A stretch of DNA of 64,000 nt, from sequence record MH533020.1, one strand, 5' to 3'. The stretch is from Acinetobacter phage ABPH49. Within the stretch, counting starts at the first letter, position 1. Each line of letters opens with the position of its first letter. Positions 5,147 to 48,456 of the stretch are shown piece by piece. The notes beneath the pieces were generated by a model. That model searched no databases, was not told the DNA's origin, and saw only the letters and a list, made by a program, of their open reading frames with translations. Made by a program: the position numbers and the translations under genes.

Positions 5147-5321
5147 GAAACCCCCACTTCACCGGCATGATGCTGACATGACGATGACTGCGTTTTGGGA
5201 TGGTTTTCAGGTATTCTTCCCTAGCCATCTTAGCCTCTTCCTCGGTAGAATGAGCCGATACCGGCATATCTCGACAGCGGAACGATGTAGAGTCTCTCAT
5301 CACTACGTATATGTTTTTCAT
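5139..5321 (-). CDS. hypothetical protein (60 aa), paralog of 5318-5500
   Basis: internal ATG with GGGGGA RBS; shares NI(Y/H)VV..AH.T.E.A..A(R/K)EEYLK..VKWG with its neighbour. Confidence 0.55.
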   Translation of the reverse strand: MKNIYVVMRDSTSFRCRDMPVSAHSTEEEAKMAREEYLKTIPKRSHRHVSIMPVKWGFHG

Positions 5322-7171: not shown

Positions 7172-7501
7172 TCAGTCAGACTCTTCATTCTGGGATACCT
7201 CCTTTTCCGGTATACCCCCGGTTTTAGAGGGGGTGGGGTCCAAAATATCACCACCAGAAATATCCCGTGGGGCTGTCTGGTCCCGTGGTGACTCGTCACG
7301 GGCGTGGTATCGCCAAATCCACAAGCTCCCGTGGGGTAAGCGCGTAGCAGGCTCACGAACTTCACCAAGGGCCTCGTCGATCGCATCGCGAAGTCTCAGC
7401 AGCTGCTCTTTCCCAACAAGGGTGACGACCTGTGTATTGCCACTCTTGAAGGTCTGGCAGACCACCAGTGATTCTCTGTCTGTTGCCAACTCAATGCTCA
7501 T
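7172..7501 (-). CDS. hypothetical protein (109 aa), first gene downstream of the 7536-7564 promoter
   Basis: GAGGA RBS; consensus sigma70 promoter just upstream. Confidence 0.6.
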   Translation of the reverse strand: MSIELATDRESLVVCQTFKSGNTQVVTLVGKEQLLRLRDAIDEALGEVREPATRLPHGSLWIWRYHARDESPRDQTAPRDISGGDILDPTPSKTGGIPEKEVSQNEESD

Positions 7502-7535
7502 ATTTTGTCCTCATGTCTGCTCATTTCTTTCCACC

Positions 7536-7564
7536 ACTATACCCAACCTAAAGAGGTCCGTCAA
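7536..7564 (-). promoter_or_regulatory. sigma70-like promoter TTGACG-N17-TATAGT
   Basis: read on the minus strand; about 32 nt upstream of the ATG at 7501. Confidence 0.6.
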
Positions 7565-8323
7565 CTGTTATCTTTCCTTGCCAAAATATCCTGCCCTTTG
7601 GAGGCGGACCGGAGGGAGGCCTCTGGGTCTTGGTGTTTCGGGGGAAATTACACTATTTGGATAGTGGTGCTTGACGGAACCTCTGGGCAGAACGGGGGTG
7701 GGGCGGATCTTTGCCAAATATCTGGGCAAAAATCAAAAAGGGTACCAGTTCCTCGCCGTTCTCAAGTTACAGACATTATAACATCGGCGTGCCAGAATAC
7801 AAGCTTTTTCTTTGCCTTTTTGTTGCAGGCATTCACCAACATTTGGGGTCAGATACAGCACTTTTTGCCAAGAAACCCGGGTTTACCTGTGCTTCACCCA
7901 ATTTAACATAAAACACGTTATACGCACCAACAAGGGACCGGCGGAGCGGGCCTGTTGCAATTGAGTCTCATTACCAACAAGGCAGGCCAGCTAAGGCGCG
8001 GCCAGTGATCAGCCACCTCCATTTGAGAACGCTTCTCATTCAACTTTTGCAATCTGAATCGCAATAATAATTATTCTCATTTGCATTTCGATCCGCATTC
8101 CGGGCACCAACTAAATTTAAAATAAAAATATTTGACAAGTAGCGAATACTGTGTTTTGCTAGGCAGCTTTGCCCTGCTGTTGGTCATCTTGTGAGCAAAT
8201 ACAGCCGCTATCCTGTGGAACCAGACCTCCGGGGCCTGTTGGTCTGCCTCTTCAGTCATCCCCTGATGCATTTCTATGCTAAGAAAACAAGATATTTATT
8301 CACTTAATTTGATAACAAAAAGC

Positions 8324-8351
8324 TTGACATACTGTAATTTGTCTCTATTAA
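8324..8351 (+). promoter_or_regulatory. sigma70-like promoter TTGACA-N16-TATTAA inside a non-coding gap
   Basis: plus-strand motif; no ORF downstream, only a structured region. Confidence 0.4.
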
Positions 8352-8357
8352 AGACAA

Positions 8358-8583
8358 AGGAAAATAGAGACAAGCGCCACCGCCGAAGGCGATGATCGCG
8401 GGGGAAGCAACACAGCCTAGCGCGTGATAGCGCTGGGTGTGGGGGTTACTCTATTTTCCTTTGTCGCTCGCTACGCTCGCGCCACCCTGATCGCGGGGGG
8501 AAAACTGCGACATCTGGTAAAGGTCAACAGCCGAAAAGCTGTGATCGTCTAAAACAGCCTGTGCGCTGTTTTAAGGCGTTTTC
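8358..8583 (+). ncRNA. candidate structured small RNA (about 220 nt), hypothetical
   Basis: promoter at 8324-8351; 17-bp arms 8353-8369 / 8449-8465 give a long-range inverted repeat; local hairpins; a repeated GATCGCGGGGG motif; terminator-like hairpin with T-run at 8553-8583; no coding potential. Confidence 0.25.
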
Positions 8584-8858
8584 ATGCTAAGGTGATAAAT
8601 GGTATGGCTTACAGCCCGAAAGCCTCGCAGTGGTCCGCCTGTGAAGCCGTTTAGATGATAATGGTTCTCAACAAGTTGGTGGTAGGATTTTTAGGGTGAT
8701 TGGTGGGTTTTGGGGGTTGTATTGATCATTGGTTGGTGATATTCTGTTAGATCGGTGTTGGTTGTGGGTGATACCATTCCGCCAGCGGCTAAGGCCGGTT
8801 TCCAACTGGTGGCAATGCCTCGAGGCTCGCCGCTGTTCGCCCTGGGTAATCTTGTGAC

Positions 8859-8888
8859 GAAAACAAGAAACCCGGCGCTGTGGCCGGG
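8859..8888 (-). terminator. rho-independent terminator (minus strand)
   Basis: hairpin CCCGGC-GCTGTG-GCCGGG followed by a U-tract on the minus strand (plus strand shows cgaaaacaagaaa). Confidence 0.5.
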
Positions 8889-8967
8889 CTTGTGGTGGGT
8901 GTTACTGTGGGTTACTGCTGGGTGTGAAACAACCATTTAGCCGCTTCATTGCGGGCCGCGACCTCTT

Positions 8968-9318
8968 CTAGAACTCTCCCCAGCTGATCCGGCTGATATG
9001 GCGGTTTTCCATTGCTGCCTGTACTGACAGATCAAAGGGGGAGAAACCATAGCGCACTATGCGGATCTCTTCAAAACCGGTGTAATACTCATTGCCGAAC
9101 TTCTTGGCTGAGAAGACCGCCTCGATCGTGTACTCCCGGTTGCCGTCGTTCACCTCTTCAATGAGGACAGTCTCACGCATTGCCCAATTCTGACAATCGC
9201 GGATAACTTGGCAAGCTTCAGGGCGGAGGGTGCCAAAATTCACGGCGTGAGCCAGCGCAGCAGGGCCAAAGGTGCGGGCAATAGCGATAACATCGGCGCG
9301 GGTTTCGATAGTGAACAT
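8968..9318 (-). CDS. hypothetical protein (~116 aa; start MFTIETRAD)
   Basis: RBS AAAGGAA before internal ATG. Confidence 0.55.
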   Translation of the reverse strand: MFTIETRADVIAIARTFGPAALAHAVNFGTLRPEACQVIRDCQNWAMRETVLIEEVNDGNREYTIEAVFSAKKFGNEYYTGFEEIRIVRYGFSPFDLSVQAAMENRHISRISWGEF

Positions 9319-9417
9319 GGTGTGATTCCTTTTTGTGGGTGGAGGCGGTATTGCCTCCCGATGTGTTAATAGTAGGTCATCTGGCGCAGGATGTAAAGCG
9401 GATAAGTGAAATAAATG

Positions 9418-9442
9418 CAAAAAACCCCGGCACTACGGCCGG
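9418..9442 (-). terminator. hairpin with U-tract (minus strand), possible terminator
   Basis: 5-bp GC stem, hexaloop, then an A-run on the plus strand (U-run on the minus transcript). Confidence 0.4.
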
Positions 9443-9705
9443 AGTTCGTTCGTGATTTCGTTGGCTGCGGCGATCTGCCGTAGGCGTGCCAATCTGTCAA
9501 GGTAGGTGCTATAAGCCTGCATTAGGGCGGCTGGCTCTTCCCGGTCATACTGCAAAGACACCCGGCGATCGTCTTCCATGCCAACGATCCAGAAATAGGC
9601 GTGATCGCTTTCTTCCACCGCAACCAGTTGTAACCAGTTAGGGGACATCCCGTCATCGTCAACAGGGGTTACGATACACTCTTCAAGCTTGATTGATTTG
9701 GTCAT
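9433..9705 (-). CDS. hypothetical protein (90 aa)
   Basis: GAGG RBS; ATGA overlap with upstream gene. Confidence 0.6.
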   Translation of the reverse strand: MTKSIKLEECIVTPVDDDGMSPNWLQLVAVEESDHAYFWIVGMEDDRRVSLQYDREEPAALMQAYSTYLDRLARLRQIAAANEITNELRP

Positions 9706-10020
9706 GATAAAGCCTCATTGGTTGGAAAATTTACTACCTGACACCGAACTTTATCAGGATAGGACCTTCCTGTTATAAAGTCAATAAAAATCGCATCTGT
9801 AAATTCAATGCTTACTGAATCATCACACCAGTTAACTATGTAATTTCTGTTTTCGAGTTGTTTGCGGGTGATGGGTTTTGCACCTGCGGCTTTCATAGAA
9901 GACCCAAGGATTTTATGGACTATCCACACATGCGCCGATCCCCGGTAAGATTTTTCTCCCTCGCTCAACAAATGGTCAAGGGCCTTTTCTGGACTGGTAA
10001 AGTTATAAGACATGTGCATG
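9702..10020 (-). CDS. hypothetical protein (~105 aa; start MHMSYNF)
   Basis: internal start preferred; the N-extension runs across an intergenic GC hairpin. Confidence 0.45.
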
Positions 10021-10059
10021 ATTAGGGTCTCATATAGGCCCCTTTCGGGGCCGGGTTGG

Positions 10060-10326
10060 TTACTTGTACAGTTTGACAAAGTCGCGGAAAATGTCGTTCC
10101 AGTCAGGACCGTTTTGCAGCTGGTAAGGCTTGCCGTGGTGGTCATAGTTCATGGCGCTAACTTCACCAGTGGCAAAGAAGCCGCTGTCATATGCTGCTTT
10201 CTCGGCCTTGCGGATCACGGCGTTGATCCGGTTTCCGTTCGGGTTGCCGTTGCTCTCAGCGTTCAATTGCTTGGCGGTAACTTCCAGATTTTTCAGGGCT
10301 GTTCTGATGAATTTAACTTTGTTCAC
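10060..10326 (-). CDS. hypothetical protein (88 aa; GTG start)
   Basis: ORF; AAAGGTAA RBS. Confidence 0.55.
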   Translation of the reverse strand: MNKVKFIRTALKNLEVTAKQLNAESNGNPNGNRINAVIRKAEKAAYDSGFFATGEVSAMNYDHHGKPYQLQNGPDWNDIFRDFVKLYK

Positions 10327-10423
10327 TTTACATTACCTTTCGGGGTGGCTGGCGGTGTGCCTTGCCTCTGGAAACAATAATAGGACCTTTCGGCCCTGAA
10401 GTCTTTAGCAAAAAGTGCTATTT

Positions 10424-10581
10424 TTATCGTTTACCGCTTGCACGGTTATTCAGCCAATCCCGAACCATGCGGATCGCCTCATAATTGTAACCTTCAGCCT
10501 GCATTCTGGCCTCTAACTGCATTTTGGTTAGGTTGAGCCTACGGATCCGCCGGGCGTACTGATAAGCCTGATCTTTTGTCA
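10424..10581 (-). CDS. hypothetical small protein (~52 aa; MTKDQAYQYARRIRR...)
   Basis: not in track; RBS GGGAGCGGG; directly abuts the downstream gene. Confidence 0.35.
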
Positions 10582-13740: not shown

Positions 13741-13836
13741 AAGCCCCTTGGCTTGTTGGTTACCTTTGACCGGTGAAGCCTCGCAAGGCCCCACCTCAAA
13801 GATATTATGGGACCAGTTCGGCCCCTTGTCAACACT

Positions 13837-14226
13837 TTAAATATAAACTTTCCCGTCGTCGCCGACGTATGGATCACAGCTCCCGGCTTTTTTGCTCATC
13901 GCTGTAAGAACGTCGCCAGTGTTGCCAAGGCCGCGATCCCAGAATCCTACGCCGTGCCCGTTGCGAGTTAACCAAAAGTCATGCCCGGACAATTCGAAAG
14001 AGTGGAGGCCGTCGGCGTCTAGACGTTCCATAATGGTATAAGCATCTTTCCAAAACGCATGGCACTCTAATTTCACCTGCTCCACAGTCTCGGCGGCCAG
14101 CTCAAAGGCTTGGAGATCCTCCACCTCTTCACCAGTGGCGGGATCCGTGCCCGGCGTGCTCCACAGCATGGCGGTGATATAGGCCTTTACAAAAGCGTTG
14201 AATTGTGGGTTATCTGAGTATTGCAT
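13837..14226 (-). CDS. hypothetical protein (~129 aa; start MQYSDNPQF)
   Basis: ATG with AAGAG RBS; the track start is a TTG. Confidence 0.5.
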   Translation of the reverse strand: MQYSDNPQFNAFVKAYITAMLWSTPGTDPATGEEVEDLQAFELAAETVEQVKLECHAFWKDAYTIMERLDADGLHSFELSGHDFWLTRNGHGVGFWDRGLGNTGDVLTAMSKKAGSCDPYVGDDGKVYI

Positions 14227-14279
14227 AATGGTATCTCTTTTCAAAGGGGCCGGGGTATCCGGCCCTTGTGGTTAGTATT

Positions 14280-14495
14280 TTACGCCAATTCGGTGATGGT
14301 TGCAACAGCGCCAAGCATTACATATTCCGAACCTTCAGCGGTGAAGTGACGATCGCCGATATAGCTTACAAAATCAGACTCGCCGACGTTACGCATAAAA
14401 CACTTATTGTCAGAATCACGAACAAAGAATTGAACCTTCTCTTTCTTGTTGGTGTAGAACTTGCCAGCGCTGCGAGTGGTTTTGGTCTGGTACAT
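14280..14495 (-). CDS. hypothetical protein (71 aa)
   Basis: RBS AAGAGGAAA; upstream TTGCGT-N16-TATAAT embedded in an inverted repeat at 14503-14543. Confidence 0.6.
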   Translation of the reverse strand: MYQTKTTRSAGKFYTNKKEKVQFFVRDSDNKCFMRNVGESDFVSYIGDRHFTAEGSEYVMLGAVATITELA

Positions 14496-14568
14496 TTGGG
14501 ATTTCCTCTTGTTGTCCCGTTTCGATATAAAAGATTATACATCACCCACGGGACAACGCAAGCACATT

Positions 14569-14721
14569 TTAGAGATAAGTGATCGAAAACTCCCAACTGA
14601 TTGAAAACGTTTTGTAAACCAGCCAGCAAATCAGACCTACAAGTGCCAGATCACACAGGACAGACAAGCCAAGGGCGGCTAGGTATTTACGGCGCAGGCG
14701 CTTTGTGGTTGAATTTTCCAT
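14569..14721 (-). CDS. small membrane protein (~50 aa; MENSTTKRL...)
   Basis: RBS AAGGGGGAA before internal ATG; TM segment. Confidence 0.45.
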   Translation of the reverse strand: MENSTTKRLRRKYLAALGLSVLCDLALVGLICWLVYKTFSISWEFSITYL

Positions 14722-14731
14722 GTGTTCCCCC

Positions 14732-15016
14732 TTAGAACCAGTTGGCTGAGTCGTTGAATTTTTGATCGCCGTAGCGGCCGGTAAAGTACAGGCGAACCAG
14801 TGTTGAGAATCGCTCACAGGTCACTGATACAATCAAAAGCGACAAGGTAGCATCCATTTGATCCCACTCCTCAAGCTTCAGTCCGCCAGCCTGCGCCGCC
14901 TGTTGTATGCGCTTCAATTCATCATGGCACGCCGCCCGGGTCCAGCCTGTAAGGCTACCAGTCCCGATCACTTGCTGCAATACGGCATTGTTTACGGGTA
15001 AAGGTTGGTTTGTCAT
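14732..15016 (-). CDS. hypothetical protein (94 aa)
   Basis: RBS AAGAGGA. Confidence 0.6.
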   Translation of the reverse strand: MTNQPLPVNNAVLQQVIGTGSLTGWTRAACHDELKRIQQAAQAGGLKLEEWDQMDATLSLLIVSVTCERFSTLVRLYFTGRYGDQKFNDSANWF

Positions 15017-15028
15017 GGTGCTATCCTC

Positions 15029-15160
15029 TTAGAAGTTGGCCGCGTGGCCGGTTTGGTAAATAGAATCAAGTGCCTTAAAGATCCCGATCATTCTGTCGGC
15101 GTCAAGTCGGTTTACTGATAACTCAACCAGCTTGTAAATCAGTTCGTGGATGATTGACAT
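15029..15160 (-). CDS. hypothetical small protein (43 aa; MSIIHELIYK...)
   Basis: not in track; AGGAGCC RBS; preceded by hairpin GCGGGCC-GTGGT-GGCCCGC. Confidence 0.35.
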   Translation of the reverse strand: MSIIHELIYKLVELSVNRLDADRMIGIFKALDSIYQTGHAANF

Positions 15161-15205
15161 CTTTAAGGCTCCTGTGCGGGCCGTGGTGGCCCGCTGTAGT
15201 TTGGG

Positions 15206-15625
15206 TTAGCGCTGATAGCCGATCAGCTCAAAACGGGCACCGGCAGCGCGGTAATTGCAACATTCACAGGCTGCGGGGGTGAAGTCCGTCTCTTTCTCAC
15301 CATTGCCCAAAAATTTATAAAGGCGATCCAGTCGCAAAACAGACTTTTCGATCTTGGCTTCCCACTCCGCCGGGATTTCTTCGCGGTGTTCACCATTGGC
15401 CCAGAACAGGCGGCAATCTTCGCACACCATGAGACTGATCGGATCTTTTGATGGCTCCAATTCGAAACCGTTGTTTAAGATCACGTGCTTCACGGCTTCC
15501 ACCATAGACGGGCTTTCGTTGTATTTGCCGGATACCGGGTCGATCTCGATCATTCCGATAAATGAACCTTCACGCTCTACAGCCATGCGGTTTGATGTGA
15601 CGCGGGTCAAAGTGCAGTTATACAT
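15206..15625 (-). CDS. Cys-rich hypothetical protein (139 aa)
   Basis: AAAGGA RBS; CEDC ... CECC motifs. Confidence 0.6.
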   Translation of the reverse strand: MYNCTLTRVTSNRMAVEREGSFIGMIEIDPVSGKYNESPSMVEAVKHVILNNGFELEPSKDPISLMVCEDCRLFWANGEHREEIPAEWEAKIEKSVLRLDRLYKFLGNGEKETDFTPAACECCNYRAAGARFELIGYQR

Positions 15626-15705
15626 GGTAAAATCCTTTGTTTCTGTTGGTTGATAACTCTTTATATGCGGCTATCTTAGCAATGATCATAACCGCATGTA
15701 AAGGA

Positions 15706-15852
15706 TTATTTTTCGGTAATGTGTAAAATTTTTGGCGCTTTGTTCACTGGTGCGGGCTTCTCGCCGTACTGGTGGATAAAGAAAGCAAAAACACAGGCTA
15801 ACATGATATGCTTTTTCCAGTCAATACGCACCGTATGCTTTTTTGTGCTCAT
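15706..15852 (-). CDS. hypothetical small protein (~48 aa)
   Basis: not in track; GGGGGCG RBS; ATGA overlap. Confidence 0.35.
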   Translation of the reverse strand: MSTKKHTVRIDWKKHIMLACVFAFFIHQYGEKPAPVNKAPKILHITEK

Positions 15853-16064
15853 AGGTAACGCCCCCACACCTTAGGGATCATGGCATCGATCACCATCGCC
15901 AGACCCGCCAGCGGCCCGGCAACAAACAGGGCAACCGCTCCGCATACCGCCACCGAATCGGCGGACCCGGTTGTCATAATCCCGATCCCGGCGGCAATGT
16001 ACGCCACAGGGACCGCAACTAACATTAAGAATATTGCAGCGGATACTGTGATTAAGCAATTCAT
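15849..16064 (-). CDS. membrane protein (~71 aa; start MNCLITVSAA)
   Basis: AGAGA RBS before internal ATG; two hydrophobic helices. Confidence 0.5.
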   Translation of the reverse strand: MNCLITVSAAIFLMLVAVPVAYIAAGIGIMTTGSADSVAVCGAVALFVAGPLAGLAMVIDAMIPKVWGRYL

Positions 16065-16372
16065 TTTTCTAATCTCTGGGGCGGTGTCCGCCCCGTTGGG
16101 TGTCAACTTACCGGCACCGCGTGCCAACTATTGACTATGGTTTTATCTTTACCGCGTGCCTCTTCAAGGTCGCGATAGTGTTTCAAGGCCCGATCCTTGT
16201 CAGTGTATACGCCTTTCACCTCGGCGGCAAGCGGGGCCGCCGTGGCTTGCGTGACAATGTAAATCACGTTAGTGATCCGCCGGGATCGTATCGTTAGCGA
16301 TGGCGGCGATAACGCCTTGCACCATATGATCCGGCAGGTAATCGCTCTCCGCCTCGGCGATGCGCTGGCCGT

Positions 16373-16576
16373 TCACCTCGCATCATAGCCGATCTTGAAC
16401 CCTTCAGCGGTACGGTAAACCATAACCACCAGCGGGCAAGTTTTGGATTCGTCCTTGTGGTGTTTAAAGGTGATCATGGTGACGTGCCCGGAGATCTTCA
16501 CCTCTGCATCGATGTGACGTTCTACAGCGGACAGGAAGAAAAATTGATTTGCTTGGCTCATGCGTTGGATAGTCAT
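16373..16576 (-). CDS. hypothetical protein (67 aa)
   Basis: downstream of promoter TTGACA-N18-TATACT and the conserved 5' hairpin; RBS AGAGGAAA. Confidence 0.65.
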   Translation of the reverse strand: MTIQRMSQANQFFFLSAVERHIDAEVKISGHVTMITFKHHKDESKTCPLVVMVYRTAEGFKIGYDAR

Positions 16577-16592
16577 TTTAGTTTCCTCTGTT

Positions 16593-16652
16593 GGCGGGAA
16601 CCATTCCCGCCGCTTGATAAGAAGTATAGGCGATTGTTCGCGGTGCTGTCAA
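16593..16652 (-). promoter_or_regulatory. sigma70 promoter TTGACA-N18-TATACT plus conserved 5' hairpin (copy 2)
   Basis: -35 at 16647-52, -10 at 16623-28, hairpin GGCGGGAA-CCA-TTCCCGCC at 16593-16611. Confidence 0.65.
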
Positions 16653-17186
16653 CTAAATAAACAGGACTTTATCAATTAATTTTTCCACCAGATCCGCGCG
16701 GTGTGCTGCGTTGCCGTTCGTCTGGCTCAGGGATACGGCGCAGGCGGCGCGGTATGCGGCGATCATGGGTTTAAGCTGCACGCGGTTAACCGTGGCTCGG
16801 GCGGCGGTGTCTGCGTTGTCACTCTGGCCTTTCATGAAGGTTATAGCGTTCTCTTCGCCGACCTTATATTTTGTAATGATCCGGCGATCTTTGAGGTAGG
16901 AAACGATCTCTTTCTGGAAGGAATAGAACCCCTCGAGGCTTCCACGTTCCAACATTTCCCCAGCAACAGACCAGACACAAGCGGCGGCGTAGGTCCCGGT
17001 TTGGCATGAGTCGGCCAGAACGTTTACCGCGTGGCGGAATTCACCGGCGGCGATCAGCTGGCGGATCTCATAAGCGCGGAATTTATAAAAGGTATGCATG
17101 GCGCTTCCAACGGGCGCTGTTCGGCGCTCGGCGATCGCCTGATCAACGATGTCAAATTTCGGCTGCAATTCGTTTAAAGTGTACAT
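16653..17186 (-). CDS. hypothetical protein (177 aa)
   Basis: GAGGA RBS. Confidence 0.65.
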   Translation of the reverse strand: MYTLNELQPKFDIVDQAIAERRTAPVGSAMHTFYKFRAYEIRQLIAAGEFRHAVNVLADSCQTGTYAAACVWSVAGEMLERGSLEGFYSFQKEIVSYLKDRRIITKYKVGEENAITFMKGQSDNADTAARATVNRVQLKPMIAAYRAACAVSLSQTNGNAAHRADLVEKLIDKVLFI

Positions 17187-17273
17187 GGTAGATCCTCAAC
17201 TGTTTTTGTGGGTTAACTTCTTTAACTGATGCCGCCATTGTATAGCGGCACCTTAAAGAATGCAACCTTTATT

Positions 17274-17432
17274 TTACCTCGCAAAGTATGCCGGGTTAAC
17301 CTTGATCCCGTGGCGGGTCAGTTCGTCAGACCGCACACGTTGACCAGCGGTAAAGCGGAAAACCCCCGCGCCTGTCCCGATCGTTACATCTACCAGACAA
17401 AACAGCAATTTACAGATTGAGCCTTTCATATT
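17274..17432 (-). CDS. hypothetical small protein (~52 aa; MKGSICKLL...)
   Basis: AAGAGG RBS before internal ATG. Confidence 0.4.
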   Translation of the reverse strand, partial: NMKGSICKLLFCLVDVTIGTGAGVFRFTAGQRVRSDELTRHGIKVNPAYFAR

Positions 17433-17505
17433 GTTACCTCTTAAAAAATGTATTGTAAAAGTGAACCTACACCATACCAGAACGCCGCACACAAAACAAG
17501 GATTG

Positions 17506-17652
17506 CGGCATAAACTTTTTGATTAAACGTGAAGCGTTGACCCATTGCCGTTCCCCCCGCTAGGTTTCTTGTTTAGCTGCTGAACCATCCACGCCGGGAC
17601 CTTCTGGCCCGCTGGCTTGTGGGTGAATTTCGTGGTTTTCTTGGTGATGCGG
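17506..17652 (-). CDS. hypothetical basic small protein (~48 aa), frame uncertain
   Basis: not in track; AAAGGGA RBS; an alternative overlapping frame exists. Confidence 0.25.
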
Positions 17653-17750
17653 ATAAATACAGATGGCATTTTGTAGTCCCTTTTGGTTTGCTTTCGTTTG
17701 CATATGCCGCCATTCTACACGACGGCATAAACCAACGTCAAGCTATTATT

Positions 17751-17936
17751 TTATGGCATTGGCTCAACTTCAGGGCCGGGGATACACTGCGCCAAAATGT
17801 AGCGGTGATCCTTGCGGCGCTCGGCTGCTACGATCTCACAGGTTACGCGGTCGTCGTAGGAGTCAATAACGTAATCTTCACAGTTCATATAACCGAAGTT
17901 TGACAAAAAGCACATAGTTGCGAATACTTCAAACAT
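17751..17936 (-). CDS. hypothetical protein (61 aa)
   Basis: GGGAGGG RBS. Confidence 0.55.
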   Translation of the reverse strand: MFEVFATMCFLSNFGYMNCEDYVIDSYDDRVTCEIVAAERRKDHRYILAQCIPGPEVEPMP

Positions 17937-18092
17937 TTACACACCCTCCCGAACATAAAATTTTGTGCCTGCTGGCAGGCGTTTGCCGTAGCCCTCTCGA
18001 TCTCTCAGTCGCTGGCGGGCTTCTTTCTCATTGTGGCCGTGAACCTTGAGGGGGTGAGCCACGCCGGGGATATTTACAAAATAGTGTTTCAT
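17937..18092 (-). CDS. hypothetical small protein (~51 aa; MKHYFVNIPG)
   Basis: internal ATG with AAAAGG RBS. Confidence 0.45.
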   Translation of the reverse strand: MKHYFVNIPGVAHPLKVHGHNEKEARQRLRDREGYGKRLPAGTKFYVREGV

Positions 18093-18094
18093 AG

Positions 18095-18202
18095 TTACCA
18101 GCCTTTTACAATTGCGATTGCTGCACATGATACCAGAGCAACCAGAGTGAAGAAAACAGCGCCGATCGCGCTAACAGGTACTTGTGTCAATTCATAAGTC
18201 AT
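18095..18202 (-). CDS. small membrane peptide (~35 aa)
   Basis: not in track; AAGGAAATG; downstream of promoter 18254-18282. Confidence 0.35.
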   Translation of the reverse strand: MTYELTQVPVSAIGAVFFTLVALVSCAAIAIVKGW

Positions 18203-18253
18203 TTTACATTTCCTTGTCGGTTTGGTCGGGGCCTTTCCCGTCCTGATGTAAGT

Positions 18254-18282
18254 AATATACACCTACTCGATCGGGGTGTCAA
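18254..18282 (-). promoter_or_regulatory. sigma70 promoter TTGACA-N17-TATATT
   Basis: consensus hexamers with ideal spacing on the minus strand. Confidence 0.6.
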
Positions 18283-18306
18283 CAAGGAAACAGAAAATAA
18301 TTTAGA

Positions 18307-18531
18307 TTATTTTCGTGTGACTCGGATCGCCGTAAAAATCTGCTTTCCCTCTTCACAGATCAGGATCTGCGAGGTACTAACCCGGATACCTTCACGCGAT
18401 GCCGTAGCTGTCAGCGAGCTAACCGCCTGCGCGTAGGTTTTTGGAGCCTCCACAAAATAAACCAGTGAATAGCCTAGCTGTTGCGCCTTCAGGTGGCGGA
18501 TAAAAGCGGTTAGACTAAGAATGTTTTCCAT
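18307..18531 (-). CDS. hypothetical protein (74 aa)
   Basis: ORF; AAAGGTAA RBS. Confidence 0.5.
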   Translation of the reverse strand: MENILSLTAFIRHLKAQQLGYSLVYFVEAPKTYAQAVSSLTATASREGIRVSTSQILICEEGKQIFTAIRVTRK

Positions 18532-18589
18532 CGTGTCGCATTACCTTTGTTTGTGGGTCAAAAGCGGCCCGTGTGGGCCGCTACGCTGT

Positions 18590-18730
18590 TTAATCCTTCA
18601 GGCCTTCCCAGTGCCACGCCTTGCCGCGTTGCGTCTTGTTGGCCTTGCTACGCTTAACCTTGTCGCGGTCGTGGTAGCCAAATTTTTCTTTGCTTGCCGC
18701 GTTGCGGGTTACTGCATTGTTGGTGATCAT
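18590..18730 (-). CDS. highly basic small protein (~46 aa)
   Basis: internal ATG with AGGATAA RBS. Confidence 0.4.
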   Translation of the reverse strand: MITNNAVTRNAASKEKFGYHDRDKVKRSKANKTQRGKAWHWEGLKD

Positions 18731-18740
18731 GCTTATTATC

Positions 18741-19046
18741 CTATTTGTTTGATTTAAGTTCAAGTGCATAACGGCGATCAATCTCATCCTGCACCAGTTC
18801 CAACGATTGGCGGGTGTAATGGTATAGCACCTCGCCGCCTAACTTCTCGAGCCGGGACAATACTGCATCGGCTACGAATTCATTTAACGCGCCGTTTTCC
18901 CGCGTGGTGTACACATCACCAAACAACTCATATTCAATATAATGAAACACTTTATGCTTTCTCCGCATAAGCTCCCGTTTGATGAGGGGCGGCGCATAGT
19001 ACGCCACCACCGCCACGGCCGCAAGGCCTGTTATCATATCAATCAT
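18741..19046 (-). CDS. hypothetical protein (101 aa), N-terminal TM
   Basis: ATGA overlap with upstream gene. Confidence 0.55.
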   Translation of the reverse strand: MIDMITGLAAVAVVAYYAPPLIKRELMRRKHKVFHYIEYELFGDVYTTRENGALNEFVADAVLSRLEKLGGEVLYHYTRQSLELVQDEIDRRYALELKSNK

Positions 19047-19461
19047 TCATCGCGTCATCCAGTAAACGGGCGATATCTTCCACGATGACGGCGCAGATCG
19101 TCCAGCTGATTACCTCCCAATCATCACCCTTTTGAGCATAGAGCGCCTTGCCGATTTCGTCAAGGTTGAAGTCCGCCAAGCCTCGGCACTCTTTGAGCAT
19201 TTCCAGAGATGATCCGTTGCCACAGTTTGCGGCCAGATTGGACAAATGATCTTGCACCTGATCCGCATACTTTTTGAGGAAAGCGCCGCACTCAGTATAG
19301 TAAATGAAACTTGTACCGCCTGCCGCGCCGTGGTTGGCGATGTCTGAAGCTTTCTCCTTGAAGTCTGCCCAGCTGCCGTGCACATTGGCAACCGCGCGGA
19401 TCAGTTTTGCATTCAGAGCGTTGTCAGTAACAAAAGATTTCAGAGTGATATTCTTAGCCAT
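19039..19461 (-). CDS. hypothetical protein (140 aa)
   Basis: AAGGTAAA RBS; promoter 19535-19562 upstream. Confidence 0.6.
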   Translation of the reverse strand: MAKNITLKSFVTDNALNAKLIRAVANVHGSWADFKEKASDIANHGAAGGTSFIYYTECGAFLKKYADQVQDHLSNLAANCGNGSSLEMLKECRGLADFNLDEIGKALYAQKGDDWEVISWTICAVIVEDIARLLDDAMND

Positions 19462-19534
19462 GATATTTACCTTATATAAAATGCCTGTCGGCGGTTGTTT
19501 GGGTTAGGGTGTTTCCCTTCCCCTGATGCCACCT

Positions 19535-19562
19535 ATTATAGGGCGGCACCGGGAAGAGTCAA
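19535..19562 (-). promoter_or_regulatory. sigma70 promoter TTGACT-N16-TATAAT
   Basis: minus-strand consensus. Confidence 0.6.
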
Positions 19563-19571
19563 CAACTATTT

Positions 19572-19937
19572 TTAATTTTCTTCGTCTTCCTCTTCGTTTT
19601 CCAACTCTTCGATCTTCTCTTCCAGATCGCTGATCTCGTTTTCTAATTCCTCTTCCTCTTCCATTAAGCCCTTATAATCCTCCTCGTCCTCTTTATCAAG
19701 GCTGTCGGTCCAGTCATTCAGGCCGCCACGGAAAGCGGTCGGGTCCAGCTGTTGGAGCGCGTAGCCCGTGTTGTAGGTTCCACCGGCGATCTCAACCGTC
19801 CCGTAGACCTCATCAAGATACTCCATGTAATCCTCATCGCTGCGGCTGATTTCGTAGGATTCCATTTCAGCCTGTTTTTCCTTCAGGTTATTGCGGGCGA
19901 TGATCAGTTGAGCGTTCAAAGTTTCGATGTTAGCCAT
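19572..19937 (-). CDS. acidic coiled-coil protein (121 aa, E/D-rich)
   Basis: downstream of promoter plus conserved hairpin; strong composition bias. Confidence 0.6.
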   Translation of the reverse strand: MANIETLNAQLIIARNNLKEKQAEMESYEISRSDEDYMEYLDEVYGTVEIAGGTYNTGYALQQLDPTAFRGGLNDWTDSLDKEDEEDYKGLMEEEEELENEISDLEEKIEELENEEEDEEN

Positions 19938-19958
19938 TATATTTATCTCTCATATTGT

Positions 19959-20019
19959 GGCGGGAACCATTCTCGCCTTGATGTGTCGTATCTTACTACT
20001 ACCTGTTTTGCGTGTCAAA
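19959..20019 (-). promoter_or_regulatory. promoter TTGACA-N18-TAAGAT plus conserved 5' hairpin (copy 3, one mismatch)
   Basis: hairpin GGCGGGAA-CCA-TTCTCGCC at 19959-19977. Confidence 0.5.
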
Positions 20020-20026
20020 CTTATTT

Positions 20027-20221
20027 TTAAATCTTTTTGCCTTGCCAATCAAACTTGAAAATCACTTTTAAATCAGGGCCTAGCAGGTTTCCGGCGGCAC
20101 TCAGTGCGGCGATCCGCTGGCTGGCTTCTTTCTCTATGTCGTTAAGAGTCTTTACCTCGCCTTTGTGGTTTACCGGCTGTATATACAAAACCGGCCCCGT
20201 TGATAAGCTTATGCTGTACAT
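20027..20221 (-). CDS. hypothetical protein (~64 aa; MYSISLSTG)
   Basis: AAGGAGG RBS before internal ATG. Confidence 0.55.
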   Translation of the reverse strand: MYSISLSTGPVLYIQPVNHKGEVKTLNDIEKEASQRIAALSAAGNLLGPDLKVIFKFDWQGKKI

Positions 20222-20541
20222 TGTGAAACCTCCTTGAACCGTGCGGCCTCGTCTGGGTGTGCGTAGCGACCGAGGCCTATCACATACTCCCAATTTTCGG
20301 CAGTCATTACAAAAGTTTGGTGACGGCGGTCAAGTATGCCGCTTAATGCCGCCTGATCATTATAGACCGTTGGGCTTTTTGCGTCGATAACATAGCGGTT
20401 TAAGCTTGCCGCCTCGCCAGCCGTCAACACGTGGCCGGTATAACATGTATAACCCTCACAAAGCGGGTTTTTAGCCAAGTGATCGACCCGGCCTTGTAAA
20501 GACTCCAAAGAAGGGAGATCAGGATTCTGATTGTATTTCAT
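20209..20541 (-). CDS. hypothetical protein (110 aa)
   Basis: GAGG RBS. Confidence 0.6.
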   Translation of the reverse strand: MKYNQNPDLPSLESLQGRVDHLAKNPLCEGYTCYTGHVLTAGEAASLNRYVIDAKSPTVYNDQAALSGILDRRHQTFVMTAENWEYVIGLGRYAHPDEAARFKEVSQCTA

Positions 20542-20606
20542 AGTTTAACCTCGTGTCAACAAAACTTTTATGAGTGGGACCAGACAAGATCCCACTGGTA
20601 AAAGCC

Positions 20607-20786
20607 TTAGTGACGGTTTAAGCTCAAAGTGCCGCCGGTATGGGTTAGGCCCACCGTCCAGCCGTCGCGGCCCTTAACCGGTTGTTTGGTTTTGCCGCCT
20701 ACCTTGCGGAGGATAGCCGCTTCTTTGCGGGCCTGTTCGCGGGTGGTGTGAGTTGCGCCGATAGTAACGATAGTAACGTTTTTCAT
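20607..20786 (-). CDS. hypothetical basic protein (59 aa; MKNVTIVTIGATH...)
   Basis: not in track (the plus-strand shadow ORF 20682-20879 is listed instead); RBS AAAGGAAAGG; follows promoter plus hairpin. Confidence 0.5.
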   Translation of the reverse strand: MKNVTIVTIGATHTTREQARKEAAILRKVGGKTKQPVKGRDGWTVGLTHTGGTLSLNRH

Positions 20787-20806
20787 AATGCCTTTCCTTT
20801 TGGTCT

Positions 20807-20866
20807 GGCGGGAACCATTCCCGCCTTGATATTGAGTATATTAGATTATCTTGTTTTGCCTGTCAA
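20807..20866 (-). promoter_or_regulatory. sigma70 promoter TTGACA-N17-TAATAT plus conserved 5' hairpin (copy 4)
   Basis: -35 at 20861-66, -10 at 20838-43, hairpin 20807-20825. Confidence 0.6.
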
Positions 20867-21216
20867 CCGATCATTTTAGTTTTTACTGAAATTTTCGGGT
20901 GTGGAAGGATCGACCCGTCCAGCAATTCCCCGCCTGCGTGGCGCTGGCGGAAGCGATCCACAAAGTTCAACAATTCGGTATAGCTCGAGATCCTGCCGCG
21001 TGCTGATCTGTTTAGCCCTGCGTACTTAGGATCCCCATGAGACGATGATACGGTCGCCACGCGGCCCGGGGTGATAGGTTGGAAGTATACCGCACGCGCG
21101 GCGCGGATTGACTCAATACCCGGGGCGGCTTTCTTGGCTACGGTTTCGCCATGCTTTACAAACAAGATCTTGTTAAGTTCTGGGGCGTAGGCGTGGATCT
21201 CGATAACCATTTTCAT
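20863..21216 (-). CDS. hypothetical protein (117 aa)
   Basis: downstream of promoter plus hairpin; AGGTAA RBS. Confidence 0.6.
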   Translation of the reverse strand: MKMVIEIHAYAPELNKILFVKHGETVAKKAAPGIESIRAARAVYFQPITPGRVATVSSSHGDPKYAGLNRSARGRISSYTELLNFVDRFRQRHAGGELLDGSILPHPKISVKTKMIG

Positions 21217-21238
21217 CTGTCATTACCTTTTTGATTTT

Positions 21239-21297
21239 GGCGGGAACCATTCCCGCCGCTTGATAACTAATTTACGCCCTTATCTTGTTGGCGTCAA
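21239..21297 (-). promoter_or_regulatory. sigma70 promoter TTGACG-N17-TAAATT plus conserved 5' hairpin (copy 5)
   Basis: -35 at 21292-97, -10 at 21269-74, hairpin 21239-21257. Confidence 0.6.
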
Positions 21298-21305
21298 CTA
21301 CTATT

Positions 21306-21596
21306 TTAAATCTTTTTTACGTCTTTTCCTGCAACAACCCGGACACGTGCGCCGGGGTGGCGGGCCTGATACGTGGCCGCGCCGTCTTCGCATTCGCGCT
21401 TTGTTCCCACGTGGATTACAGATATTTCCCCGTCCAGCTTATCAGTGGTTACGGCGGCGTGCGACCGGTCAACGGACAACCATCCCGCCTCGAAAGCTGC
21501 GATATTTTCCGCCTTGTTGTAGCGGCTTTTCATGATCAGGCCTTGGCGGGCACACTTCACGCCATACTGATAAGCCGGGGTGTTTACGTCGATCAT
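21306..21596 (-). CDS. hypothetical protein (96 aa)
   Basis: AAGGAG RBS. Confidence 0.65.
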   Translation of the reverse strand: MIDVNTPAYQYGVKCARQGLIMKSRYNKAENIAAFEAGWLSVDRSHAAVTTDKLDGEISVIHVGTKRECEDGAATYQARHPGARVRVVAGKDVKKI

Positions 21597-21610
21597 TTTG
21601 CATTTCTCCT

Positions 21611-21901
21611 TTACAGTATGCGGGAACCTTTGAATCTAAGAATGTAGCGTTCTGTTTTGGCCGCGATGTTTTCCACCGTCTGGCGGTCATAGCCTTGGAT
21701 CTGGATGTAACAACATACCGGCGTGTTGTATGTTTCGATATCTACCAGACATGGCGGAAGGAAACCATTTACCGGCGGAAACTTTTTCCTGATCGTGTCG
21801 TGGAATTTTTCCGCCGCGTCTAGGACCTGATCAACCTCGAGATTTTCGCCCGGCTCAAAGTCTATACTACAGCGGTAAATGGTTTCAATTGTGCTTTTCA
21901 T
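21611..21901 (-). CDS. hypothetical protein (~96 aa; start MKSTIETIY)
   Basis: internal ATG; upstream extension is unsupported. Confidence 0.5.
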   Translation of the reverse strand: MKSTIETIYRCSIDFEPGENLEVDQVLDAAEKFHDTIRKKFPPVNGFLPPCLVDIETYNTPVCCYIQIQGYDRQTVENIAAKTERYILRFKGSRIL

Positions 21902-21910
21902 TGTCTGGCC

Positions 21911-22063
21911 TTTATCGGGTTTCGATATGCTCCATTCTAAGCCACGGCCCGGCGTTGTCAACTTCTTTTTTAATCAGCGCTTTGGCCTCAACCGCCGATC
22001 CGGCCTTGATCCATTGCCGCCCGTAGTGCTGGCCGACTTGCCAGCGGATCAAATATTCTTTCA
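21911..22063 (-). CDS. hypothetical small protein (~50 aa; MKEYLIRWQVGQHYG)
   Basis: not in track; GAGGGCAACAAAATG. Confidence 0.35.
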
Positions 22064-22380: not shown

Positions 22381-22416
22381 CGGAGCAAAGCAAGCAAAAA
22401 TATTTTAATTTTGTTG

Positions 22417-22444
22417 TTGACTGCTGCAACACAGGGCCTATAAT
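22417..22444 (+). promoter_or_regulatory. sigma70 promoter TTGACT-N16-TATAAT (plus strand)
   Basis: perfect -10; drives the small plus-strand gene at 22476. Confidence 0.6.
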
Positions 22445-22475
22445 GGAGGTACAAACAACGCGGAGAATTGAAACA

Positions 22476-22685
22476 ATGTTGAACCTTGACCAGTTGAAAG
22501 CAGCAATAAATAACGGGGAGCTTGAAACGGCTTACAAGGATTGCCGCCGGTACGGGGTGATAACCTCCAAAGAGGATCGCCAGTGGTTTGGCGACATTAT
22601 CACCACGGTTTGGATAAGTTATCTGGGTAGGCCCTTTAAATTCTCCTTGCGGTTAGGTGTGGTAACGGCGGCAACTCTTTATTAA
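22476..22685 (+). CDS. hypothetical protein (69 aa), the only plus-strand gene inside the left arm
   Basis: promoter upstream, GGAG RBS, terminator hairpin downstream. Confidence 0.5.
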   Translation: MLNLDQLKAAINNGELETAYKDCRRYGVITSKEDRQWFGDIITTVWISYLGRPFKFSLRLGVVTAATLY

Positions 22686-22697
22686 ATTGTGTTGACA

Positions 22698-22726
22698 ACC
22701 CAGCGCAAGCTGGGTTATTCTGTTGT
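22698..22726 (+). terminator. rho-independent terminator ACCCAGC-GCAA-GCTGGGT plus T-rich tail
   Basis: 7-bp stem, GCAA loop, TATTCTGTTGT tail. Confidence 0.5.
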
Positions 22727-23027
22727 CAGCAGGAAACGCCACCCCACGGCGAAAAGGCGGGGCTAACGCAGCCGGGCACGGCGCGGAAGGTTAATCGCCG
22801 GTAGCTCGTCCAAAATTTCTTTTGTAAAGATTGAGAAAAAGCTTGATCGTGGGTGTGAGTGTGCTATTCTTATCACATGGCACCGGATGACGGGGAAGAC
22901 AAACACCACCCCTGCCTGTCATTCTGCAAACGAGAATGATTATCATTCAACATCCTAAATGAGAACCATTCTCATCCCGACCGGGAGAGATCTAGACCGA
23001 AAAACTGATTTACAAAAACAGGATACC

Positions 23028-23240
23028 CTAGAAAAATTTTTCGCCCTCCCCTCTTCTGATATAATACGATCGGAAATTTAAAAAATCGATCGAGATCCTA
23101 AAAATTTTTCGCCCTGCCCTTCTGTAGATTACGAAACCGAAAATGAAAAACCGATCGAGTACCAGAAAATTTTTTCGCCCTCCCCTGCCCGGGGTATTTC
23201 GATCTCGATTTTGAAAAACCGATCGAGAACTCAAGTTTTT
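23028..23240. repeat. three-plus tandem direct repeats of ~67 bp
   Basis: each unit carries TTTTTCGCCCT(C/G)CCC and AAAAACCGATCGAG; the units start near 23028, 23097 and 23162, in a 1.1 kb non-coding region. Confidence 0.6.
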
Positions 23241-23471
23241 TTTAATCCCACGAGGTTGGTAGGAGCGGGCCGATGGAGACCCTTCCGGTGGGTCAAGGTG
23301 TTGGGATACGTGGCGAAGTTATCCACACTTGGAGGTAAGTGGGTGGTAAGCTGTAGGTGGATGGAGGCCCTGAGTGGGTGATTACCGGCAACCGAGTGGC
23401 CGCCGGGATCTCAATTTGAATCTCGATTTGGATTTGATTTTGATTCAGGTTTTATAATATCCTGAAAAATA

Positions 23472-47789: not shown

Positions 47790-48237
47790 GGTGTGTAAGA
47801 AGTGCGGGGCTGAAAAGCCCCTCACTGACTTTTACCGCCACAGTGGAATGCTTGATGGGTTCTTAAACCACTGCAAGTCGTGCGTCAAGTCTCGGGTTAA
47901 GAATCACCGGGATGAGAACATAATGGAAGTTCGACAAAAAGATCAGGAAAGGGCTGCGAGAAGGGATATGGTTGCAGCTACCAAATCAGGAAAGAAGTAT
48001 CGTCAGCGAAACCCAGAGAAATACAGGGCACACACGGCGGTAGGTAATGCAGTTAGGGATGGAACCCTTATTAAACCTACCAATTGTGAGAGGTGTGGGT
48101 CTGGAGGCAGGATTACCGGACACCACCACTCTTACGCTGAAGAATTCCATCTTGACGTACTGTGGTTATGCTATCCTTGCCACTCGGCAGAGCATAAAAG
48201 GTTAAACCTTCTGGGGATTGACCCAGACAATGGTTGA
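47758..48237 (+). CDS. HNH endonuclease (homing-endonuclease-like)
   Basis: CKKCG...CKSC then CERCGSGGRITGHHHSYAEEFHLDVLWLCYPCHSAEH (HNH motif); its start overlaps the primase-helicase tail in another frame. Confidence 0.7.
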   Translation: MTTTMTPARSKVCKKCGAEKPLTDFYRHSGMLDGFLNHCKSCVKSRVKNHRDENIMEVRQKDQERAARRDMVAATKSGKKYRQRNPEKYRAHTAVGNAVRDGTLIKPTNCERCGSGGRITGHHHSYAEEFHLDVLWLCYPCHSAEHKRLNLLGIDPDNG

Positions 48238-48245
48238 CTTTTCCA

Positions 48246-48276
48246 AAGGGGTGGCGTAAGCTGCCCCTTAGTTTTA
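48246..48276 (+). terminator. terminator hairpin GGGG...CCCC plus T-run
   Basis: AAGGGGTGGCGTAAGCTGCCCCTT then AGTTTTAT. Confidence 0.5.
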
Positions 48277-48291
48277 TCCACGGAGGACAAG

Positions 48292-48456
48292 ATGAAGAAG
48301 AAATATATCATTTTTGGAAGGATGGGTGTTGACTATGACTGGCATCAGGTCGGCACCGTGTATGCTGAGTTCTTGGACCAGCGCATGAAGCACTATTACA
48401 AAACATGGCGACAGCTGAAAACTGAGGAGATTACGTATGACCGTGATGAAGGGTAA
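48292..48456 (+). CDS. hypothetical small protein (54 aa)
   Basis: not in track; GGAGGACAAG-ATG. Confidence 0.5.
   Translation: MKKKYIIFGRMGVDYDWHQVGTVYAEFLDQRMKHYYKTWRQLKTEEITYDRDEG

Follow-up and report, generated by a model that had tools for sequence, protein, structure and literature searches.

What does a virulent phage keep in about 1.4 kb of DNA that holds no credible gene? The question is raised by Acinetobacter phage ABPH49 (record MH533020.1), in which such a gap lies between two leftward early transcription units (7502-8967 of the 64,000 nucleotides analysed here, hereafter the window). This gap is real, non-coding and conserved. We consider, with a probability of about 0.5, that it is an insulated, operator-flanked locus and that its central part (about 8100-8650), which includes a single-copy three-way junction at 8353-8465, specifies a structured non-coding RNA. 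The phage is a virulent myovirus, kin of the Serratia phages vB_SmaM-Kashira and ChuuTotoro (both filed under Vequintavirinae), with identities to the window of 95-99% where aligned for Kashira and of about 73-82% for ChuuTotoro. In the complete map of ChuuTotoro, the locus is embedded, far from either edge, in a cluster that spans 33 kb and consists of small leftward early genes without known function.

Further relatives were obtained by searching with the protein encoded directly left of the gap, which returned five homologues in Logan assemblies (contigs L115-L119), in each of which 1.2-1.5 kb without genes precede the gene for that protein. The gap sequence of L115-L118 is 74-81% identical to that of the window, and these contigs, together with the window, Kashira and ChuuTotoro, constitute the seven-sequence alignment used here (L119 was left out over the gap; L116 is the most divergent aligned copy). 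An initial annotation of this DNA had suggested looking for the region in close relatives, and it is present in ChuuTotoro, in Kashira and in the five Logan assemblies. Between the window and ChuuTotoro, DNA identity is 80-94% in the gap versus 55-75% in the flanking genes, and the protein encoded directly left of the gap is 57% identical to its ChuuTotoro counterpart. The 300-nt tiles of the gap score 0.85-0.89 in this comparison, in the top 5-10% of all window tiles and at the highest level reached anywhere in the window. No second copy of the gap sequence was found in the window or in the ChuuTotoro genome, a plasmid collection gave no match to it, and exact-pattern scans, in which IMG/VR was searched with four conserved blocks, metagenomes twice and genomes once, returned only chance AT-rich palindromes and unrelated high-GC repeats. 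Conserved sequence reaches about 850 bp upstream of the two leftward promoters described below, and its most conserved part is the following:

7880-8060, no strand assigned: most conserved block of the gap, near-invariant at 7885-7965 and with many hairpins

This block includes a GC-rich hairpin (7928-7957) with a GRA triloop on the plus strand and a UYC triloop on the minus strand. Its substitutions are too few for covariation, and its consensus folding energy, -44.8 kcal/mol on the minus strand versus -33.5 on the plus strand, follows G-richness.

The absence of a credible open reading frame (ORF), claimed in the initial annotation, was borne out. No intact ORF of at least 10 codons is common to all seven aligned sequences, the longest ORFs of the gap are broken in relatives, and the best-preserved one differs from ChuuTotoro by 10, 11 and 8 substitutions over the three codon positions, that is, without codon periodicity. 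A missed protein gene was rejected on these grounds, and a 15-codon ORF at 8605-8652 with a Shine-Dalgarno-like TAAGGTGAT was also discarded, being lost in L115 and L117. All flanking genes are on the minus strand; the ten nearest window proteins have no match in Pfam, and their PHROG matches are all without known function. ARAGORN found neither tRNA nor tmRNA in the window, in agreement with the earlier statement that the gap contains no tRNA. The gap had also been described as separating two early operons, bounded by a minus-strand terminator and a minus-strand promoter; we located these at 8891-8868, on the right, and at 7564-7536, on the left, where the promoter is conserved.

The core of the central segment is a 17-nt perfect inverted repeat, already noticed in the initial annotation, which occurs once in the window with 0.2 matches expected. 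Its arms close a three-way junction, followed by a second motif and two small hairpins:

8353-8465, no strand assigned: core element, a three-way junction with covariation and without a match in Rfam
8353-8369 paired with 8449-8465: P1, the closing stem of 17 bp
8381-8384 paired with 8388-8391: P2, with a GRA/UYC triloop, extendable to 8374-8398
8411-8423 paired with 8430-8441: P3
8478-8500, no strand assigned: second motif copy, GCGCCAC...TGATCGCGGGGG(A), equivalent to the base of P2 without the hairpin tip
8527-8542, no strand assigned: hairpin H4 (ACAGC / GCTGT)
8550-8573, no strand assigned: hairpin H5, symmetric, between an A-tract and a T-tract, weak, either direction possible

All 17 pairs of P1 are Watson-Crick in every sequence (119/119 cells of the alignment). 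In L116, the arms GACAAAGCAAAATGAGG and CCTCATTTTGCTTTGTC differ from those of the window by double substitutions in four pairs and are still complementary at 17/17 positions. The P2 hairpin (8381-8391) switches between CGCC-GRA-GGCG and CCCC-GRA-GGGG, and the P3 stem at 8420-8433 changes from GCGC/GCGC to GTGC/GCAC. Altogether, the plus-strand alignment contains 8 double-changed pairs, versus 1.7 ± 1.1 in shuffles (0/500 as high) and 0-3 in controls with slid partners; in the minus-strand alignment, pairing of the curated junction amounts to 97.8%, and 7 pairs covary. The compensatory substitutions exceed those of the controls, and the covariation analysis that had been proposed at the outset supports the fold. 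G·U pairs adjoin the covarying Watson-Crick pairs, as is usual for RNA.

In three relatives, an insertion of about 25 nt in the junction forms its own hairpin with the pre-existing CGCCAC, and arm spacing rises from 79 to 104 nt while the P1 arms stay perfect. Since the distance between the arms varies while the fold is kept, a folded single strand is favoured over two protein-binding sites. When the genomes and contigs were searched with a covariance model of the element, each gave one and only one copy, and a second gene-poor gap of the same early cluster gave no hit. There are eight copies in all (window, Kashira, ChuuTotoro and L115-L119), that of L119 having been found by this model.

The direct repeat mentioned in the initial annotation corresponds to the 12-nt TGATCGCGGGGG at 8393 and 8488, which is invariant in all relatives and unique in the window; the 23-mer at 8478-8500 is identical in 7/7 sequences. 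Both spacer hairpins described there are present as well, one at 8419-8434 and the other nested at 8339-8349 / 8363-8373, the latter with 11 bp in the window and in competition with the 5′ arm of P1. As for the long-range inverted repeats, the 17-mer stands, and the others are 73-92% matches such as chance gives. Global minimum-free-energy folds of 8352-8650 and of 7565-8060, and a single-sequence 239-nt fold, were discarded, as the substitutions do not support them; the fold that stands is limited to the junction and a few local hairpins. At 8329-8352, a 24-nt piece of the window is replaced although the surroundings are about 95% identical to Kashira, and six relatives have a self-contained hairpin (CAGACC..GGTCTG) at this position. 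The replaced piece may act as a switch between alternative pairings, or may be no more than a mosaic joint.

None of the 4227 Rfam models matches the window at gathering thresholds, and the Rfam search proposed earlier thus places the region in no known family at that level; a permissive scan of 7450-8960 gave six matches only (E = 0.11 to 8.1), all far below threshold. The locus is a well-defined candidate for a non-coding RNA, being single-copy, supported by covariation and absent from Rfam.

The signals that may start and stop transcription around this segment are the following:

7536-7564, minus strand: sigma-70-type promoter of the left-hand early operon, TTGACG-N17-TATAGT, conserved in 7/7
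7776-7805, minus strand: second leftward promoter, AAAAAGC-TTGTAT-N16-TATAAT, present in 7/7
8113-8138, plus strand: invariant A/T-rich tract and perfect TTGACA, UP-element/-35-like, with a conserved TGn 15 nt further on
8324-8351, plus strand: TTGACA-N16-TATTAA of the initial annotation, of which only the TTGAC box is conserved
8660-8790, no strand assigned: G/T-rich tract with a GC skew of up to +0.53; its minus strand is rich in C/A and poor in G
8868-8891, minus strand: intrinsic terminator of the right-hand early operon, with a 9-bp stem, 6 G-C pairs and a T-rich tail

In a position-aware scan of the seven sequences, 7564→7536 and 7805→7776 are the only sigma-70-type promoters conserved in all. 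The former, upstream of the first gene of the left-hand early operon (which begins at 7501), keeps the same alignment position in 7/7 with the -10 variants TATAGT, TATACT, TATGAT and TACATT; in the latter, the -10 drifts among TATAAT, TAGAAT and TATCAT and the -35 among TTGTAT, TTGCAT and TTGTAA. Such drift of the -10 among functional variants is the signature of promoters under selection. The tract at 8113-8138 is identical in 7/7 sequences, including the divergent L116, and resembles the upstream regions of the strong early promoters of this phage, which are almost all leftward; no conserved -10 was found downstream of its TTGACA in the seven-sequence promoter scan. We discarded a weak minus-strand promoter (8091-8064), which is not conserved, and a T4-type late promoter at the invariant GATAAATGGTAT, a motif that is not used elsewhere in the window.

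The right-hand terminator is conserved in ChuuTotoro, L115 and L117, and in L116 in its 5′ half, where the aligned stretch ends. The terminator-like hairpin that had been placed at 8553-8583 exists as H5 (8550-8573), conserved and flanked by A and U tracts, but with a run of 4 U and a weak stem, and the terminator scan does not list it. H4 and H5 could end transcripts coming from either side. The GT-rich repeats of the initial annotation turned out to be a skewed tract rather than an array: Tandem Repeats Finder (TRF) reports nothing there, and within the gap no tandem array save a trivial 10-nt one at 8895-8925, nor any 36-nt repeats. As Kashira does without it, the tract is dispensable; a possible role would be the loading of Rho onto RNA from leftward read-through. 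The Kashira deletion spans about 1.9 kb relative to the window and ChuuTotoro (window 8640-10545; Kashira L001 around 5246-5260), takes out the G/T-rich tract, the terminator and several small genes, and joins a truncated ORF (MTKDQAYQYARR...) straight onto the conserved block right of the element.

The segment is also bracketed by operator-like palindromes. These belong to a Fur-box-like family, TGAGAATnATTCTCA, with 7-1-7 symmetry, common to this gap and to the second gene-poor gap, and a shorter form, TGAGAANNNTTCTCA, has 11 window matches with at most 2 mismatches versus 3.2 expected. The sites of this gap are:

8024-8038, no strand assigned: perfect palindrome TGAGAACGCTTCTCA, clustered with 8065-8079
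8065-8079, no strand assigned: palindrome TAATAATTATTCTCA (TGATAATCATTCTCA in Kashira)
8656-8670, no strand assigned: right-hand palindrome TGATAATGGTTCTCA, conserved in ChuuTotoro at 84771

Over the window, palindromes of the family stand at 8024, 8065, 8656, 12709, 22931 and 22960, with 8024/8065 and 8656 on the two sides of the central segment; in ChuuTotoro-type relatives, the 8024-8079 cluster has three sites. The six best matches in the 147-kb ChuuTotoro genome (84110, 84145, 84168, 84771, 98483 and 98512) comprise four in this gap and two in the second gap, one of the latter a perfect copy. As none of these six lies outside the two gaps, one dimeric regulator, either host Fur or a phage protein, may act on both. 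In all relatives, gap palindromes match the Fur box (GATAATGATAATCATTATC) at 13-15 of 19 positions (TGAKAAT-n-ATTMTCA compared with TGATAAT-n-ATTATCA), and in relatives the site at 8024-8038 matches the E. coli consensus at 14-15/19; the best phage copies, TGAGAAT-n-ATTCTCA, differ by G/C instead of T/A at symmetric position 4. A Fur-box match by itself is not specific, because 25 positions on the plus strand of the window reach 13/19. A weak Rfam match to PrrF aligns only to the promoter/Fur-box end of the PrrF model. If host Fur binds this operator, early-phase control of the phage would be linked to the iron status of the host.

We hypothesize that leftward early transcription from the right-hand operon would be halted at the terminator 8891-8868 and restarted for the left-hand operon by 7805→7776 and 7564→7536. 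The central segment of about 0.5 kb lies between Fur-box-like palindromes and contains the single-copy junction 8353-8465, followed by the second invariant GCGCCAC...UGAUCGC-GGGGG motif and then by two small hairpins that could end transcripts. Its product would be an RNA of a few hundred nucleotides, with a junction domain and two invariant motifs bound by protein or nucleic acid, and its synthesis would be under the control of a DNA-binding dimer, either host Fur or a protein of the phage, that recognises TGAGAATnATTCTCA. We infer the folded molecule to be RNA rather than single-stranded DNA, and the strand, the start and end points and the binding partner of that RNA are proposed on the same footing. 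It is a speculative and rather unlikely extension of this proposal that the element would be the first of an undescribed class of phage non-coding RNAs, with a junction of about 110-140 nt, two invariant GCGCCAC...UGAUCGC-GGGGG modules and a locus with Fur-like operators that would tune an RNA effector to the iron/metal status of the host; such an effector might act, for example, as a decoy for a host protein, against host defence or as a primer of replication.

Several observations weigh against a structured RNA specified by this segment. No sigma-70 promoter for the central segment is conserved across the seven sequences on either strand. The plus-strand promoter from which the initial annotation derived an RNA of about 220 nt (TTGACA-N16-TATTAA, 8324-8351) is present as sequence, but is missing from the consensus scan list (4 promoter-like sites versus 2.4 expected): its -35 is kept, and a -10 at 16-18 nt is found only in the window (TATTAA) and in L116 (TTGACA-N16-TACAAA), that is, in 2/7 sequences, the five other aligned relatives having TTGACT, 20 nt containing the hairpin, and TACAGA. 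In the larger single-sequence folds of the plus strand, 5 changed pairs are kept versus 21 broken. Thus, from that earlier reading the conserved, structured non-coding element stands, whereas the promoter is not conserved and the 239-nt fold is broken by substitutions. Most of the covariation comes from one divergent lineage, L116, and therefore represents few independent events, and in P1 and the interior of P2 and P3 every pair is Watson-Crick, a pattern equally to be expected if the element were an inverted repeat or cruciform in DNA. Kashira keeps the element without the right-hand terminator, so insulation is not absolute. The wobble evidence is contradictory, with the extended P2, the second motif copy, H4 and H5 pointing to the minus strand and P3 to the plus strand, and we found no expression data on these phages in the literature.

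The strand that folds bears directly on an alternative in which the fold belongs to a leftward, minus-strand RNA and acts as a processing, stability or attenuation module of a long inter-operon leader, comparable with the RNase III sites of T7, transcribed by read-through of the terminator or from an unrecognised promoter. On the minus strand, the extended P2 has 11/11 pairs in every sequence, through the invariant blocks AUGAUCGC and GCGCCAC, with energies of -11.7 to -14.0 kcal/mol versus -6.1 to -8.6 on the plus strand, where its two invariant U·G pairs become C·A mismatches. The second motif copy forms a hairpin only on the minus strand (-3.9 versus -0.1 kcal/mol), the closing pair of H4 in L115 and L117 is G·U on the minus and C·A on the plus strand, and H5 in L116 is kept on the minus strand only (-6.6 kcal/mol, without an equivalent plus-strand hairpin), its change being G·U on the former and A·C on the latter. 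Minus-strand folds share the same architecture across sequence types, whereas plus-strand folds differ by type; the minus strand is also that of the flanking genes and of the two conserved promoters, and in Kashira the truncated ORF runs into the element with no terminator between. Nevertheless, a leftward transcript would meet a good intrinsic terminator just right of the segment, which we counted for the plus strand, and then a C-rich, G-poor tract before reaching the element, and there is no conserved minus-strand promoter in 8600-8870. P3 is about 6 kcal/mol more stable on the plus strand owing to its G·U pairs, among them one that alternates between U·G and C-G, and since the outer part of the extended P2 is invariant, covariation does not prove its pairing. 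The plus strand further offers the invariant A/T tract with TTGACA (8113-8138) and, in all copies, a TTGAC box 23-27 nt before P1. A choice of strand by consensus folding energy was abandoned, because these energies follow G-richness. The evidence on the folded strand conflicts, and the sequences suggest a slight lean towards the plus strand; we regard the leftward leader as unlikely.

A role of the element as DNA, in which a hairpin or cruciform would serve the start or priming of replication, packaging or recombination, seems to us improbable; in one variant, a plus-strand transcript rich in G-runs would act as an R-loop primer, as in ColE1 or T4 oriF/oriG. The strict Watson-Crick pairing of P1 and of the inner P2 and P3, which shows no strand asymmetry, fits such a role, as do the GRA triloops with a C-G closing pair that P2 and the hairpin 7928-7957 have on the plus strand. 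Loops of this type form unusually stable DNA mini-hairpins. The AT-rich stretch 8050-8199 (37% GC), three invariant G5-6 runs with positive GC skew downstream of the TTGAC box, the single-copy state expected of an origin and an excess of TGATCR in the gap (5 versus about 1.7 expected) point in the same direction. Against it, the cumulative GC skew of the window has its minimum at about 31 kb, at a divergent gene switch, and the gap presents only a small local inflection; the iteron-like ACCAAC/GTTGGT hexamers, with copies split by orientation, are no more numerous than the top hexamer of other tiles and are not conserved on the right-hand side. There is no adjacent replication gene among the ten nearest proteins, none of which matches Pfam, conserved G·U pairs beside covarying pairs are less expected in DNA, and the second gap, with a 66-bp tandem repeat and A/T tracts, is a better origin candidate. 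The replication origin offered as an alternative in the initial annotation is not supported by the position of the skew minimum or by the unexceptional, poorly conserved hexamers; were the element nonetheless a replication signal, it would be the first origin candidate for this phage group. It is more improbable still that the gap would be a protein-binding regulatory region only, with no functional folded product and with arms and palindromes as binding sites. Two conserved promoters, a palindrome family confined to two gaps, long invariant sequence blocks and the lack of support for global folds are what such a region would present, but it would account neither for compensatory changes in three helices, two of them short-range hairpins, nor for a 25-nt hairpin insertion that shifts the arm spacing by about 2.4 helical turns while the arms stay perfect, and about 850 bp of conserved sequence upstream of the promoters is far beyond usual needs of promoter control.

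To our knowledge, few functional non-coding RNAs have been described from virulent phages, and several of these serve in anti-defence or packaging. The packaging RNA of phage phi29 (pRNA), of about 120 nt, is a three-way junction with a long helix made of its 5′ and 3′ ends and two hairpin arms. Our element shares the junction shape only: it has no complementary loops for ring formation, it belongs to a large myovirus, and a conventional large terminase is annotated in ChuuTotoro. The pRNA family was not among the six permissive Rfam matches (E ≤ 10), its presence in the library not having been checked. As in lambda PR′ 6S RNA, HK022 put and nut, there is a -35-like box, a compact fold, weak hairpins with U runs and an inter-operon location; unlike those, the element has no downstream genes on the plus strand that could profit from an antiterminator, and its promoter is not conserved. 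With ColE1 RNA II and T4 oriF/oriG it shares a promoter-like box, a structured region rich in G-runs and an AT-rich neighbourhood, but the gap has neither a skew signal nor adjacent replication genes. Long, fully Watson-Crick stems between early units of a lytic phage recall the early RNase III hairpins of T7, although a 17-bp stem closing a junction differs from the two-stem design of T7 and the comparison holds only if the minus strand is transcribed. The resemblances to pRNA, leader RNAs, R-loop origins and T7 RNase III sites are analogies only; of the defining features that we tested, the element has none but its covariation-supported structure.

Pectobacterium phage ΦTE, an rV5-like member of Vequintavirinae, contains a non-coding pseudo-ToxI RNA locus, situated in an unannotated gap, that acts against host defence (PMC3475682). 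It resembles our locus in the subfamily of its phage and in its situation in unannotated DNA, and it shows that functional non-coding RNA genes do occur in these phages. Mimicry of ToxI or pseudo-ToxI was rejected, with local alignment scores of 20 and 22 versus a shuffle mean of 22 and no tandem repeats of about 36 nt; in phage CB7, a relative of ΦTE, the ToxI-like repeats lie beside a tRNA, in a different, rightward gene cluster. As there is no ToxI similarity and the repeats of CB7 are located elsewhere, ΦTE is a precedent and not a homologue. A two-unit ToxI query matched about 200 phage records, including 163 Klebsiella phages and the Pectobacterium phages DU_PP_I and CB7. Most of these matches are 90-95% identical, most fall in DNA without annotation, and judging from them phages that mimic ToxI-like antitoxins may be much commoner than the single ΦTE case suggests.

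The 17-nt perfect inverted repeat flanking 79-104 nt also has the arrangement of retron a1/a2 repeats. Typical retron msr plus msd are longer than this interior, and a retron was rejected, given that there is no reverse transcriptase (no conserved ORF in the gap and no Pfam match for the ten nearest proteins). A CRISPR-repeat mimic was discarded as well, with no CRISPR-DR family in the permissive Rfam scan and no type I-E/I-F hairpins seen by eye, and resemblances to hammerhead, T-box and boxA/boxB noticed by eye were too short.

The second gene-poor gap lies in the same early cluster and is conserved:

22381-23471 in the window; 114,170-115,628 in Kashira; 97,899-99,021 in ChuuTotoro: second gene-poor gap

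It contains a small ORF (22443-22685, plus strand) behind a strong plus-strand promoter, TTGACT-N16-TATAAT, at 22417; another plus-strand TTGACA-N18-TATTCT with a hairpin in its spacer (22692); two TGAGAATnATTCTCA palindromes (22931 and 22960); and the 66-bp tandem repeat with A/T tracts, at 23030-23186. Its small ORFs and the flanking proteins gave no informative family. Paralogy between a part of the first gap (module B) and the G-rich segment of this gap was rejected: the alignment score is 28, versus 18.7 ± 2.9 in shuffles (maximum 31), and the covariance model misses the segment.

Elsewhere in the window, about 780 bp at 47790-48568, in the rightward cluster of replication genes, contain no ORF of at least 60 codons in a crude ORF map. 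The minus strand of 13800-22000 carries dense, near-consensus sigma-70 promoters with A/T-rich upstream tracts, at least 10 of them with 10-11 of 12 hexamer matches, spaced every 0.3-3 kb (median about 0.6 kb), and several of the best-conserved early tiles (about 16.4, 18.0, 20.0 and 21.1 kb) are no more than a few hundred bases away from those promoters.

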